From the sequence record MZ189261.1: DNA of 64,000 nt. One strand, written 5' to 3'. Positions 20,711-43,024 of this stretch are shown piece by piece. Both the position numbers and the translations under genes were made by a program. The stretch's first letter is position 1. The number at the start of each line of letters is the position of its first letter. The notes under the pieces are model-generated. The model was given only the letters and a program-made list of their open reading frames with translations, ran no database searches and was not told the origin of the DNA. The stretch comes from Escherichia phage S143_2.

Positions 20711-21712
20711 TTATTTCAGTAAAGTTACTTCAGAGATTTCCTCCCAACCATCTTTATCAGTTGAAATAAAATCTGCCACATAAAGAGCCGTACGTAATGA
20801 TACATTGCGAAGACGAGATACGTTAGCCTTCATCCAGGACAATGCTTTGTACGTTTCAGCATCAGTCAGACCACGTTTCTGCATCATGTCAGTAGATAAT
20901 ATTACATCTTCAACTCGAACCATAATCTCTTCATTAGAGTGTACTCCAAGATCGAGATATACTGAACGAGATACTAAAGCTTGAAGGTGAGGAGCAAGTT
21001 TCGAACCACGTTCTAACTCTTTATCAATATCAACGTTTGTAATGAAAACGATAGTACCTTCAAACTCAAATTCTTTATCAATACCCTTATCATCGAGATA
21101 AGATGACGCAGTGCTCCAACAAACTTTGCGTTTATCACCGGTATCTAATGCTGCTTTAAGAAGGTTCAAGATGTCCATATCCGAGAATACGTCAACGTCG
21201 TCGATTAAGAGAACGCTGTCTGCATCACGGTTGAGCCAAAGTTGTTCGTAAAGGCCAATACCAGAGATTTTACCATTAATACTTTTGTATTTGATGAAAC
21301 CATTATCATTAGCATTATTAAGTGCTTTATCCAGAGAATACGTCTTACCAATACCTGCTGCACCTGAAATAATGAGTGAACGAATTTTGCCATCGATAAT
21401 ACCATTCGTCATCATGTTCATTACTTTAAAGCGTTTGTTGATACGAGTTTTCATATCTTCAGTGCTTTCAACAACTGCAACTGGTGACGTCTCAACTCCT
21501 TCCATTACGATGTCTGATTTGAAGACCCATACTCCACGTTCAGAACCGTCAATCATAACGAAAATTTTACCATCACCTAAGTGGGAACATTCAGGATTAA
21601 GCTTTGCCGGGAACCAGGTCTTTGTGGCAACATAAGAACCAGAGATTTCGTTATTACGATAGATACCTTTTTTGATTTGAACGTTGAACATTTTATTCTC
21701 CAATTTACTCAT
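20711..21712 (-). CDS. P-loop ATPase (AAA-like)
   Basis: 333 aa; Walker A GAAGIGKT and Walker B LLIDDVD. Confidence 0.6.
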   Translation of the reverse strand: MSKLENKMFNVQIKKGIYRNNEISGSYVATKTWFPAKLNPECSHLGDGKIFVMIDGSERGVWVFKSDIVMEGVETSPVAVVESTEDMKTRINKRFKVMNMMTNGIIDGKIRSLIISGAAGIGKTYSLDKALNNANDNGFIKYKSINGKISGIGLYEQLWLNRDADSVLLIDDVDVFSDMDILNLLKAALDTGDKRKVCWSTASSYLDDKGIDKEFEFEGTIVFITNVDIDKELERGSKLAPHLQALVSRSVYLDLGVHSNEEIMVRVEDVILSTDMMQKRGLTDAETYKALSWMKANVSRLRNVSLRTALYVADFISTDKDGWEEISEVTLLK

Positions 21713-21720
21713 TTCGTTTC

Positions 21721-21758
21721 GATAGGTCTATAATAACATGTTTAAAGCAAAAGTAAAC
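21721..21758 (-). promoter_or_regulatory. early promoter module (family C)
   Basis: minus strand GTTTAC-17nt-TATTAT-AGACCTATC directly upstream of ATPase gene. Confidence 0.45.
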
Positions 21759-21979: not shown

Positions 21980-22066
21980 TTTGTTCTCCTCTTGTTTTGA
22001 TAGGTCTATAGTATCATATCCTAAAAGCATGTACACTACTTTTTAAAAATATTTTAACCCCCTAAA

Positions 22067-22082
22067 GGGACCCGAAGGTCCC
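22067..22082 (-). other. stable stem-loop with UUCG tetraloop (GGGACC-UUCG-GGUCCC)
   Basis: perfect 6-bp stem; located 5 nt after stop of gene 22088..22369. Confidence 0.45.
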
Positions 22083-22087
22083 CACAT

Positions 22088-22369
22088 TTACTTATCGCAC
22101 TTAGCAACATAATTAGGCATATCACAGAATACGGAGCGAGTAACTACTCGGCCCTTTGACCATGCTTCAGTTGCTTGTCCGGCCGTGCTATTAATATAGC
22201 TTGATCTAATGTTCTCAATACCCTGAGAATGTGATGCATTTACCGAACCATTAGAAGGCCCAGAAGACTGGTTACCACCAGCTCCTGCACTACCACCAGC
22301 AGCACCCGTGGTAGCACCAACAGAGAATGCCATCATTACTGCGAATAAACCAATTACTAATTTTTTCAT
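22088..22369 (-). CDS. secreted Gly/Ser-rich protein
   Basis: 93 aa; N-terminal signal peptide MKKLVIGLFAVMMAFSVGA; low-complexity G/S/A linker; two C-terminal Cys. Confidence 0.5.
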   Translation of the reverse strand: MKKLVIGLFAVMMAFSVGATTGAAGGSAGAGGNQSSGPSNGSVNASHSQGIENIRSSYINSTAGQATEAWSKGRVVTRSVFCDMPNYVAKCDK

Positions 22370-22400: not shown

Positions 22401-23390
22401 TTATTTATAGTAAGAATTATGATTTTCGAGATAGACTTGTTCAAGGAAGTCATCCCAGAAACTCATATCTACTTTTTGTTGCATACCGTTCTTGGCAGCT
22501 TGTTCTGACGCATGTTCAACTTGGTCAACGATATCTTCTAGGAATTCTTGTACAGTTTTAAAAGTATGTTTACCAAGCTTAACATCGAGAATAAATGGAG
22601 CATCCTGAAGTGGGTAAACCAGGTCGCCTGTTTTGTAAATTTCCAATAATTGAAGTCCACCACGGCATGCATGACTCAATGCTTTCCAGTCAATACCTTC
22701 GTTAGCTTCTGCTTTACGAGCACGTTCGCCATAGTTCTCTTCTAGTTTAACAAGGATGGCATTGAACTCTTTATTGGTTAACGTGTCTTGGAATTTACGG
22801 TCTAACAGATTATAGAATGTTTGCTTACCTGTTTTCTCGTTTTCGGTTTCAACCCATGAAGCAAATTCACCTACAGGCAGAACATTCTTCATATGTGATA
22901 AACGAATTACTGCACCATTATCAAAGTATTGTCCCCATTCATTAGAACGTTTAAGGGCTTGACGAAGAACAGCCAGTCGAGAACCCTTGACACCGTATTT
23001 AGAAGCTTGCTTACGGACATACCCTAAATAAGATTTCATGTTAGTGGTATAGAAACGAGACCTGTTATCTTGAATATACTTCCATACATCAGGCAAATCA
23101 GATTTAACTACTAGACTTGGTGGAGTGTGAAGCATATCTAATGCGACGGTTTCACCATCCGCAGCTAGTTTAAAGAAATATTTGAGACTATACAACTCAT
23201 GGTCCACGTCGTCTTTTGTGTTCTTAGAAGATGTGTTATTCGTGTTCTTGCTCATATGTTCTTTAACGTTACCGGTCAAAATATCACGAGCATGAGGGAC
23301 ATAAATTTCTTTAAAATCGACGTCAGATTCAGGAGTAGACGTTCCATAAAGGTGGCTACCAAAGTAGCCTTTCATAATTGTTTTCATCAT
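22401..23390 (-). CDS. nucleotidyltransferase-fold protein (pol-beta-like NTase)
   Basis: 329 aa; N-terminal GSHLYGTSTPESDVDF (G[SG]-x9-13-DxD) followed by helical C-terminal region. Confidence 0.5.
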   Translation of the reverse strand: MMKTIMKGYFGSHLYGTSTPESDVDFKEIYVPHARDILTGNVKEHMSKNTNNTSSKNTKDDVDHELYSLKYFFKLAADGETVALDMLHTPPSLVVKSDLPDVWKYIQDNRSRFYTTNMKSYLGYVRKQASKYGVKGSRLAVLRQALKRSNEWGQYFDNGAVIRLSHMKNVLPVGEFASWVETENEKTGKQTFYNLLDRKFQDTLTNKEFNAILVKLEENYGERARKAEANEGIDWKALSHACRGGLQLLEIYKTGDLVYPLQDAPFILDVKLGKHTFKTVQEFLEDIVDQVEHASEQAAKNGMQQKVDMSFWDDFLEQVYLENHNSYYK

Positions 23391-23860
23391 TTAGCCTTAT
23401 ATTCAAGAGTAGGACAGACTTTTTCTTTACGAGCTTTAAGGTATTCACCTATTAATGATTTCTTACGTTCAATAGGCCCAAGTCCATTTTTAATTCGTTC
23501 TTGGTTTTGCGCAATGAGCTCAATTTCTTTATAATATTTTCTGTCGTTATATTTGTCTAACAGCCAAGACGGACCAATTATCAATCCGGCAGAAATAAAA
23601 GCCATGACTGCTACCATTAAAATGCCTACACCAATTGAGGCCGGAACTAATGTCCATAGACTGCTAAAAACAAAGAATTTAGTTAAAATTTCCTGGCCAA
23701 TGATTGTGACTGCTGCTAAAATCGCAAATACAATAATTGAAACAGCCAATACAGGGATTAACGTTTTCCAAAAATAAGCACACAACGTTTTCGGACGATT
23801 CCATGTACTATTGAACGCGGCATAAATTTTAAAGTGCCAAGAGTTTTCATTGATAATCAT
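23387..23860 (-). CDS. membrane protein
   Basis: 157 aa; three predicted TM helices. Confidence 0.5.
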   Translation of the reverse strand: MIINENSWHFKIYAAFNSTWNRPKTLCAYFWKTLIPVLAVSIIVFAILAAVTIIGQEILTKFFVFSSLWTLVPASIGVGILMVAVMAFISAGLIIGPSWLLDKYNDRKYYKEIELIAQNQERIKNGLGPIERKKSLIGEYLKARKEKVCPTLEYKAK

Positions 23861-26773: not shown

Positions 26774-26976
26774 TATTCTTCTACATGTTGTTTACGACCT
26801 TTCTTATCAATAAAGGTATATTCAACGAATGTTCCGATGTAGTCTTTATCTACATCATGTGGACTATTAATTGGACATTTAGTACGACAAATGCGTTCCC
26901 ATTGACGAATAATTACTGCTTTATTTTTAGGATCAAACGGATGTGGGTAATGCACATTCATAATAATGGTTCCCAA
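26749..26976 (-). CDS. hypothetical protein
   Basis: 75-aa ORF. Confidence 0.4.
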   Translation of the reverse strand: MGTIIMNVHYPHPFDPKNKAVIIRQWERICRTKCPINSPHDVDKDYIGTFVEYTFIDKKGRKQHVEEYCLKVTWL

Positions 26977-27455
26977 TCAACAATCACAATTTCTAGTTTA
27001 GTGGAATATGTATCAAGAATTTCTTCAATGATATCCCAGTTTCCACCACCTATACCTGCACCAATTCTTGGCATATAAATTACAGGCTTTGTTATCTTAT
27101 TTTTTCCGAATTCATTTAATTCTATTATACAATTCGTTAAAGCATAGTACTCAAAATTAGGTCCCGGCTCAAACTGTGTATAAAGATTAAAGCAATAAGC
27201 TTTATGGGTCTTAAAATATTTTTCATAAACCGAATAAGTCCCGAGTTTAGACTCGTCTCCGAATTCGGTTTGAAGTTTATCGGCTTCTAGAATTTTTGGA
27301 TAAGCCTTTGCTAATTGTCCTGCCACACCGGCGCCCATTGTATGAAAACAATTACACCCATGAGCTATATTATTACCTTTAGAAAACAGGGCGACAATAT
27401 CGCCCTTGATATAGTTTTTAATCACTTGCTGCAAGTCCTCTAGTATAAGAGTCAA
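26958..27455 (-). CDS. macro-domain protein (ADP-ribose binding/hydrolase fold)
   Basis: 165 aa; GDIVALFSKGNNIAHGCNC...MGAGVAGQLAKA resembles macro-domain Gly-rich diphosphate-binding loop (compare viral X-domain GGGVAGAL). Confidence 0.55.
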   Translation of the reverse strand: MTLILEDLQQVIKNYIKGDIVALFSKGNNIAHGCNCFHTMGAGVAGQLAKAYPKILEADKLQTEFGDESKLGTYSVYEKYFKTHKAYCFNLYTQFEPGPNFEYYALTNCIIELNEFGKNKITKPVIYMPRIGAGIGGGNWDIIEEILDTYSTKLEIVIVDWEPLL

Positions 27456-42192: not shown

Positions 42193-42269
<77 letters not shown>

Positions 42270-42273
42270 TATT

Positions 42274-42348
42274 TGGCGGACGTGATAGGATTCGAACCTA
42301 TAACCAATCGCTTAACAGGCGATCGCTCTGCCATTGAGCTACACATCC
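42274..42348 (-). tRNA. tRNA-Asn (anticodon GUU)
   Basis: 75-nt cloverleaf; anticodon stem ATCGC/GCGAT, loop CUGUUAA; T-arm GGTTCGAATCC; encoded CCA. Confidence 0.8.
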
Positions 42349-42352
42349 AAAT

Positions 42353-42439
42353 TGGTGGGGAGTGATGGAGTCGAACCACCCGAGTCGCAATGACAATGGA
42401 TTTACAGTCCACACCGCTACCTCTACGGGATAACTCCCC
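42353..42439 (-). tRNA. tRNA-Tyr (anticodon GUA)
   Basis: 87 nt with long variable arm; anticodon loop CUGUAAA; acceptor GGGGAGT/ACTCCCC; encoded CCA. Confidence 0.75.
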
Positions 42440-42451
42440 TAATTCATAATT

Positions 42452-42526
42452 TGGTGGCCCTGGGTGGAATTGAACCACCATCTGGCGATTATGAGTCGCT
42501 TGCTTGAACCTTCCAGCTACAGGGCC
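42452..42526 (-). tRNA. tRNA with CAU anticodon (Met or Ile2)
   Basis: 75-nt cloverleaf; anticodon loop CUCAUAA; position after Thr corresponds to T4 tRNA-Ile. Confidence 0.75.
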
Positions 42527-42527
42527 T

Positions 42528-42604
42528 TGGTGCTGATTGACGGAATCGAACCGCCGACCTTCTCATTACAAGTGAGTTGCTCTACCTACTGAGCTAAATC
42601 AGCA
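42528..42604 (-). tRNA. tRNA-Thr (anticodon UGU)
   Basis: 77-nt cloverleaf; anticodon loop CUUGUAA; T-arm GGTTCGATTCC. Confidence 0.8.
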
Positions 42605-42608
42605 AAAC

Positions 42609-42698
42609 TGGCGGAGGCGATAGGATTTGAACCTATGAGTCGCCGGAGCGACTGCCGGTTTTCAAGACCGGTGCATTAAACCACTCTGCCACGCCTCC
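42609..42698 (-). tRNA. tRNA-Ser (anticodon UGA)
   Basis: 90 nt with long variable arm; anticodon loop CUUGAAA; acceptor GGAGGCG/CGCCTCC. Confidence 0.8.
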
Positions 42699-42700
42699 AG

Positions 42701-42774
42701 TCTCCATACAAGGATTTGAACCTTGGGCCTCCTGATCCCAAATCAGGCGCTCTACCAAACTGAGCTACACGGAG
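42701..42774 (-). tRNA. tRNA-Pro (anticodon UGG)
   Basis: 74 nt; anticodon loop UUUGGGA; T-arm GGTTCAAATCC; CCA not encoded. Confidence 0.75.
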
Positions 42775-42784
42775 TAAATTAAAT

Positions 42785-42858
<74 letters not shown>

Positions 42859-42863
42859 AAATT

Positions 42864-42950
42864 TGGTGCGAGAAGTGGGACTCGAACCCACAAGGAAATC
42901 ATTCCGCAGCATTTTAAGTGCTGTGCCTTTACCAATTTGGCCATTCTCGC
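42864..42950 (-). tRNA. tRNA-Leu (anticodon UAA)
   Basis: 87 nt with long variable arm; anticodon loop CUUAAAA. Confidence 0.8.
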
Positions 42951-42951
42951 G

Positions 42952-43024
42952 CTGGGAATAAAGGACTCGAACCTTTGCATCCTGGAATCAAAATCCAGTG
43001 CCTTACCAACTTGGCTAATTCCCA
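42952..43024 (-). tRNA. tRNA-Gln (anticodon UUG)
   Basis: 73 nt; anticodon loop UUUUGAU; T-arm GGTTCGAGTCC; CCA not encoded. Confidence 0.75.

Follow-up and report, generated by a model that had tools for sequence, protein, structure and literature searches.

The locus and its surroundings

An uninterrupted open reading frame at positions 22401–23390 of the window (the whole stretch of 64,000 nucleotides from Escherichia phage S143_2 that was analysed, record MZ189261.1) raises the question of what a T4-like phage does with a nucleotidyltransferase (NTase): whether the enzyme makes or caps a nucleotide signal, as the preliminary description had suggested among other roles, or serves some purpose connected with RNA. 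The ORF list and the translation place the gene on the minus strand with its stop codon at 22401–22403, and the length of 329 aa that had been given for the product was confirmed; the plus-strand reading of the same positions contains many stops. The start codon, an ATG at 23390, shares bases with the TGA stop of the gene upstream (ATGA), an arrangement which suggests that the membrane-protein and NTase genes are translationally coupled. An alternative in-frame ATG at 23387 would give a protein of 328 aa, and many database orthologues are called from this position. The alignments and the structure model described below use the 328-aa numbering, to which 1 should be added for the 329-aa ORF. 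Over the surrounding 4 kb the identity to Shigella phage phi25-307 (Mosigvirus) is 95%, and this stretch has matches in 630 phage records.

The neighbours noted previously (a secreted Gly-rich protein, a membrane protein and a P-loop ATPase) are all present (Table 1). The ATPase is the NrdC.10 orthologue, for which the Pfam matches (AAA_22, AAA_16 and nSTAND3) are all sub-threshold and which matches PHROG 1250, a PHROG without known function. The terminator-like hairpin beyond the 93-aa gene possibly marks where transcription through the NTase gene stops, and the NrdC.10 gene may be transcribed separately from the NTase gene; both statements are weak because the counts of promoter-like and terminator-like sites are no higher than in shuffles. 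An HMM search of the six-frame translation of the window found no second RlaP besides this gene.

Two other features of the window may be recorded here. Ten phage tRNA genes lie at 42193–43024 on the minus strand, eight of which encode their own CCA; the two without an encoded CCA, tRNA-Pro (42700–42774) and tRNA-Gln (42951–43024), directly abut tRNA-Ser and tRNA-Leu genes, like the dimeric precursors of T4 (PMC11143913). A 165-aa ORF at 26958–27455 (minus strand) occupies the position of a phi25-307 gene annotated ‘phosphatase’ and equivalent to tk.4, orthologues of which have been reported to match the A1pp/macro domain (PMC1524935). This ORF may represent another function linked to RNA or ADP-ribose in the same early region.

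Table 1. Positions of the features discussed, in window coordinates except for the last four rows, which give positions within the bacterial loci named (residues in 328-aa numbering)
Feature	Position	Strand	Basis or remark
NrdC.11-type (long) RlaP nucleotidyltransferase CDS	22401..23390	-	ORF list, PF10127, PHROG 388, identity to RB55 nrdC.11
N-terminal Pol-beta NTase core, about residues 1–130	22998..23390	-	hhalign against short RlaP, AlphaFold
G10-S11 of the hG[GS] motif (G11-S12 in the 329-aa ORF)	23355..23360	-	alignments
D22-V23-D24, metal-binding DxD	23316..23324	-	alignments, hhalign
D62, inferred third catalytic carboxylate, strand 61–67	23202..23204	-	alignments, model, hhalign
D84 (DMLH helix), conserved fourth acidic residue	23136..23138	-	alignments, hhalign
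C-terminal half, about residues 131–328	22404..22997	-	alignments, AlphaFold
157-aa membrane-protein gene, upstream; TGA stop overlaps NTase start	23387..23860	-	ORF list
93-aa Gly-rich protein with signal peptide	22088–22369		
Terminator-like GC-rich hairpin after the 93-aa gene	22056..22072	-	consensus scan; such sites no commoner than in shuffles
Promoter-like site before the next genes	21730–21757	-	consensus match; such sites no commoner than in shuffles
NrdC.10 orthologue, 333-aa P-loop ATPase	20711–21712	-	
Tandem long and short RlaP beside Hen1 and Pnkp, L060	2088–7802		
Tandem long and short RlaP beside Hen1 and Pnkp, L083	951–7793		
Tandem long and short RlaP beside Hen1 and Pnkp, L070	5385–11066		
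Tandem long and short RlaP beside Hen1 and Pnkp, L035	1672–13333		

Family assignment

Pfam gave one significant family for the protein, PF10127 or RlaP (‘RNA repair pathway DNA polymerase beta family’), with an E-value of 7.7e-13 and a score of 49.1 bits against a gathering cutoff of 23. The match covers residues 7–152 and spans only positions 23–148 of the 249 in the profile; the same family is precomputed for all of the homologues listed. PHROG 388 (‘nucleotidyltransferase’) matches end to end (E 2.6e-126). The NCBIfam scan of the protein gave no match, and PADLOC matched neither the NTase nor the upstream membrane protein. The gene labelled nrdC.11 in phage RB55 (species T4), which lies between mobD and nrdC.10 and downstream of tk and rI, encodes a protein 78.6% identical over the full length. 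Among public proteins the identity reaches 100%, and the names in use are nucleotidyltransferase, DNA polymerase beta superfamily protein and ‘RNA repair pathway DNA polymerase beta’, and the assignment of nrdC.11 as an NTase (COG3541) goes back to 2006 (PMC1524935). Many GenBank phage records (for example ESh27, FL18, AV110 and Klebsiella phage EI) call the gene ‘thioredoxin’; the protein shows no resemblance to thioredoxin and the name is apparently an artefact inherited from the locus name nrdC.11. The gene is an already annotated and already known orthologue of T4 nrdC.11, encoding a Pol-beta-fold nucleotidyltransferase of the RlaP family. What is added here is modest, namely the distinction between long and short RlaPs, the bacterial tandem pairs and a corrected family assignment, and no new kind of element is involved.

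Conserved residues and predicted structure

The N-terminus of the protein, FGSHLYGTSTPESDVDF, contains G-S, ten residues and then D-V-D. The NTase signature on which the preliminary description was based is present and is not a chance motif, as judged from the 49.1-bit family match and from the conservation of its residues. In the alignment of 117 sequences (A2) residues G10, S11, D22, D24, D62 and D84 are invariant, and in the alignment of 143 sequences at 33–52% identity (A1) G10 is invariant and S11, D22, D24, D62 and D84 are each conserved in at least 90%; the catalytic residues are also kept in 72 bacterial homologues. Residues invariant or nearly so in both alignments are G10, S11, D22, D24, N56, D60, D62, D84 and H87 in the core and Y131, K134, G135, R137, R222, D233, K235, H239, R242 and K270 in the C-terminal half, all of the latter except G135 and D233 being basic or aromatic. 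It is close to certain that the protein belongs to the RlaP family and has an intact active site.

An AlphaFold2 model built with the 117-sequence alignment (mean pLDDT 88.6, pTM 0.73) predicts with confidence a minimal Pol-beta NTase core, with a fitting order of strands, and after it a C-terminal half made up mostly of helices. The core of the model has strands at 2–9, 23–30 (with the DxD at its start), 44–48 and 61–67 (with D60 and D62), and helices at 68–76 and 80–86 (the latter containing D84), while the C-terminal half consists of long helices, a three-stranded beta insert at 176–200 and a final helix at 308–327. The helical nature proposed for the C-terminal half is therefore seen in the model, with the addition of the beta-hairpin insert, and the conserved D62, on strand 61–67, is the putative third acidic residue for which a search had been recommended. 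With an NTase core in the model and with D22, D24 and D62 conserved, neither the lack of an NTase fold nor the loss of catalytic Asp residues, either of which had been named as grounds for abandoning the NTase reading, was encountered. The more specific suggestion of a cGAS/DncV-, OAS- or MNT/AbiEii-like enzyme fared differently: PF10127, PHROG 388 and the fold uphold the nucleotidyltransferase, but the family and structural matches lie elsewhere, the structural neighbours of the model being HalB, 3c18 and the kanamycin/aminoglycoside NTases rather than cGAS, OAS or CD-NTases. Sequence searches of the PDB with the protein, with a long-clade profile and with a short-RlaP profile found no RlaP structure.

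Profile similarity of long and short RlaPs is confined to the catalytic core

Comparison by hhalign of the long clade (A1) with canonical short RlaPs (A3) gave a probability of 94% (E 1.4e-7) over residues 1–130 only. Within this region D22 and D24 are paired with the short-RlaP DxD, D62 with an invariant Asp of the short proteins (lDxNGWD) and D84 with their invariant Glu (EWLxSP). When sliced alignments of the C-terminal halves were compared no profile similarity between long and short proteins was found by hhalign (probability <1%), and as there is no C-terminal profile similarity to canonical RlaP the substrate may differ. A shared C-terminal domain carrying an insertion, for which DWKAxSHAxR of the long proteins had been matched by eye to KxYxYALR of the short ones, was dropped on the same result. 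The C-terminal 200 or so residues of the long protein correspond to the helical half that, in the crystal structure of the Pseudomonas enzyme PfRlaP, lines the proposed RNA/NTP cleft on one side and whose last helix packs back on the NTase domain (PMC12776372). T4-like phages carry the long RlaP only; short RlaPs were found in 80 phage records, mostly of phiKZ-like and other jumbo phages.

Genomic context of the homologues

One genome per prokaryotic species was scanned with the long-clade profile, which gave 80 loci with full-length relatives at 33–52% identity, many of them on megabase chromosomal contigs. The neighbouring ORFs were clustered, representatives were checked against Pfam and genes within 6 kb were counted. 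By this measure RtcB was found at 8 of the 80 loci, the Pnkp kinase-phosphatase-ligase also at 8, Hen1 at 7 and Ro/TROVE at 2. A second, canonical short RlaP (255–273 aa, with a full-length PF10127 match of 175–212 bits) was present at 21 of the 80, and in 19 of these 21 it lies directly downstream on the same strand. Among the well-flanked loci (at least 4 kb on both sides, n = 45) a repair gene was found at 12, a tandem short RlaP at 16 and one or the other at 23, so that about half of the well-flanked bacterial loci have neither an RNA-repair gene nor a second RlaP within 6 kb. The typical order in the operons is Hen1–Pnkp–long RlaP–short RlaP (L060 and L083), and in L035 the tandem pair, Hen1 and Pnkp are accompanied by RtcB and Ro/TROVE. 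The catalytic Asp residues are kept in both tandem paralogues.

Among phages, the homologue in phiM12 is flanked by two RNA ligase genes, one Rnl2-type and one Rnl1-type, both within 5 kb, and the homologue in RpAliso lies inside a tRNA gene array and is annotated ‘tRNA nucleotidyltransferase’. The closest complete genome, phi25-307, has genes for RNA ligase 2, polynucleotide kinase and RNA ligase 1, all of them roughly 55–85 kb from the nucleotidyltransferase gene, and in T4-like phages generally the NTase gene does not adjoin pseT, rnlA or rnlB. The immediate neighbours in the window are not conserved partners. In Cr30, phiM12, RpAliso and two metagenomic jumbo-phage contigs none of them was found within 6–10 kb of the homologue; adjacency of nrdC.10 and nrdC.11 is limited to T4, Mosigvirus and Acinetobacter phage Ac42; the pairing with the membrane-protein gene is absent in T4/RB55 and phiAS5; and the membrane-protein homologues in Ac42 and Klebsiella phage EI are weak and non-adjacent. 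A functional operon with the window neighbours was rejected on these grounds, and their arrangement is inherited gene order and not a conserved functional module.

On a 285-kb metagenomic jumbo-phage contig (L002, 10001–11481) the long RlaP gene is followed directly by one for a 173-aa protein with a weak precomputed match to Metallophos (calcineurin-like phosphoesterase), and this protein could be an end-healing phosphatase partner.

Distribution and dispensability

By tblastn, homologues were found in 1567 phage records, with phage hosts that include Escherichia, Klebsiella, Aeromonas, Acinetobacter and Vibrio; the distant homologues are those of Caulobacter phage Cr30 (34.5% identity), Sinorhizobium phage phiM12 (30.6%) and Ruegeria phage RpAliso (26.5%). 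This spread indicates a broadly conserved gene rather than something peculiar to one plastic region. An exhaustive HMMER search against 1.84 billion cluster representatives returned 3214 relatives, including 742 below 1e-30, mostly full-length at 35–56% identity. A 159.7-kb T4 derivative (OL964745.1) keeps just the last 12% of nrdC.11 and matches the published genome-reduced T4, in which deletion of nrdC.11–mobD.3 is tolerated by the laboratory phage (PMC9825161); nrdC.11 is therefore dispensable in laboratory growth. Such dispensability fits an accessory role but is no positive evidence.

Proposed role in RNA repair

The biochemistry of the family is known from a preprint of December 2025 on two Pseudomonas RlaPs (PfRlaP and PaRlaP) encoded between rtcB and rtcA (PMC12776372). 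These enzymes extend an RNA 3'-OH by one or two NMPs (or dNMPs) with little NTP specificity, prefer Mn2+ and are inactive on DNA and proteins; the addition is non-templated and gives the correct nucleotide in only a fraction of molecules (PMC12776372). On a mimic of a cleaved tRNA PfRlaP favoured the break in the anticodon loop over the acceptor end, both Pseudomonas RlaPs raise the aminoacylation of a repaired tRNA that is missing one nucleotide, and RlaP acts on many E. coli RNAs, among them species the size of rRNA and tRNA (PMC12776372). RlaP was proposed as an antidote to ‘smart’, nucleotide-excising ribotoxins such as RloC, and T4 NrdC.11 was placed in the family with its function given as unknown (PMC12776372). 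That phage RlaPs replace lost nucleotides ahead of ligation had been predicted earlier in a comparative study (PMC7824862), and the idea of nucleotide restoration is already present in Burroughs & Aravind 2016, as that work is cited in PMC7824862 and PMC12776372.

The role that we favour, with moderate confidence, is that RlaPs of the NrdC.11 clade restore nucleotides on trimmed tRNA before sealing by Pnk and Rnl. The two-metal site (D22, D24 and D62, with D84 nearby) would use NTPs as donors and add one or two NMPs at the 3'-OH where an RNA is broken. The main target would be the 5' half of a tRNA from which RloC or another nucleotide-excising anticodon nuclease has removed the wobble nucleotide. 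For this the phage polynucleotide kinase-phosphatase would first have to take off the 3' phosphate; after the addition, phage RNA ligase 1 or 2, whose chemistry accepts a 3'-OH product directly, would join the lengthened end to the half bearing the 5' phosphate. Addition to an RNA 3'-OH has been shown only for the two Pseudomonas enzymes, which belong to another RlaP cluster; for the NrdC.11 clade we infer both this activity and a part in RNA repair by the phage in vivo. If NrdC.11 does restore nucleotides, the textbook T4 tRNA-repair pathway would be complete, and it would be clear how T4-like phages could counter RloC-type nucleases, which have been proposed to defeat simple re-ligation; as more than 1500 sequenced phages carry the gene, such a role would be of general interest.

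The frequent coding of long and short RlaPs side by side in bacteria suggests that their roles are not redundant. A tentative extension of the proposal, which we consider rather doubtful, is that the long NrdC.11-type proteins form a functionally distinct subfamily, sharing the core and differing in the C-terminal half, that nucleotide restoration in bacteria is a two-enzyme step and that T4-like phages have kept the long enzyme only. Two enzymes in one step would imply that they differ in substrate or in nucleotide specificity, or that they form a heterodimer, and classical T4 RNA repair by PseT and Rnl1 would then have an unrecognized component directed against nucleotide-excising anticodon nucleases such as RloC.

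Alternatives to nucleotide restoration

Action at the other end of the tRNA is an unlikely but not negligible alternative: the enzyme could build or repair 3'-CCA in the manner of CCA-adding enzymes, serving phage tRNAs that lack it or acceptor ends attacked by host defences. The position and annotation of the RpAliso homologue in its tRNA array would suit this, as would the two of the ten window tRNA genes (Pro and Gln) without an encoded CCA and the addition of one or two nucleotides to an RNA 3'-OH with little NTP specificity (PMC12776372), but the protein has no Pfam match to the CCA-adding/poly(A) polymerase families (PF01743) and the preference of PfRlaP is for the anticodon loop and not the acceptor end (PMC12776372). 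Moreover, T4 does not mature its dimeric pre-tRNAs without the host tRNA nucleotidyltransferase (PMC11143913; compare the title of Deutscher, Foulds & McClain 1974), and T4 NrdC.11 is therefore no replacement for the host enzyme. Slightly less likely again is template-free 3' tailing of host or phage RNAs for decay or regulation, apart from any repair by ligases. It would agree with the activity of the family on many E. coli RNAs (PMC12776372), with the location of the gene away from the ligases in T4-like phages and with its place in an early-region cluster of genes for RNA-directed functions (the regB endoribonuclease and vs); it accords poorly with the halt of the assayed enzymes after one or two nucleotides (PMC12776372) and with a bacterial context in the same clade that consists specifically of RNA-repair operons.

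The remaining readings take the enzyme away from RNA. Pairing of an NTase gene with a membrane-protein gene recalls Hailong, but PADLOC found no match and the pairing is not conserved, so that a Hailong-like pair was set aside as a candidate and kept only as part of a low-probability alternative, in which the acceptor is not RNA and the enzyme either makes protein-primed oligo(dA) like HalB (for example holding a Hailong-type channel shut) or AMPylates a host HEPN ribonuclease like an MNT antitoxin. We consider this improbable: the sequence groups with RlaP and not with HalB or MNT, PADLOC is silent on the NTase and the membrane protein alike, the pairing is missing from T4/RB55, phiAS5 and the distant phages, PfRlaP and PaRlaP modified neither proteins nor DNA (PMC12776372), and genes of the same clade lie in RNA-repair operons. 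Least probable of all, to the point that we give it very little credence, is an enzyme of the cGAS/DncV, OAS or AbiEii type that makes or caps a nucleotide second messenger, with which the protein shares the Pol-beta superfamily motif only. Neither the sequence-family match nor the bilobed fold of the CD-NTase/cGAS-DncV/OAS group was found, nor the family match and HEPN or AbiEi partner gene of the MNT antitoxins and AbiEii (DUF1814), and none of the tests supported the synthesis of a nucleotide signal by such an enzyme.

Relation to known systems

The kanamycin/aminoglycoside NTases, the NTase-like protein 3c18 and Hailong HalB (a minimal NTase and a helical domain) resemble the protein at only 10–14% identity with whole-chain TM-scores of 0.24–0.32, and there is no sequence-family match to any of them; the acceptors are also different (antibiotics in the one case, a protein tyrosine and DNA in the other). 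The T4 protein NrdC.11 (38.9 kDa, nrdC–mobD region, COG3541/PF10127) is the orthologue, with its gene in the same position between tk/rI and nrdC.10. The two loci differ in that the upstream neighbour here is the membrane-protein gene whereas in T4 it is the homing endonuclease gene mobD, and in that two small genes intervene here before nrdC.10. The canonical RlaPs, such as those encoded between rtcB and rtcA in Pseudomonas fluorescens and P. aeruginosa, belong to the same Pfam family, although in the similarity network T4 NrdC.11 falls in cluster 5 and the assayed Pseudomonas enzymes in cluster 1a (PMC12776372). The long proteins exceed the tandem short RlaPs by some 60–70 residues and have the beta-hairpin insert, but the GS, the DxD, the third Asp and the conserved acid in the next helix are common to both cores, and long and canonical RlaPs are alike in their association with RNA ligase and repair genes.
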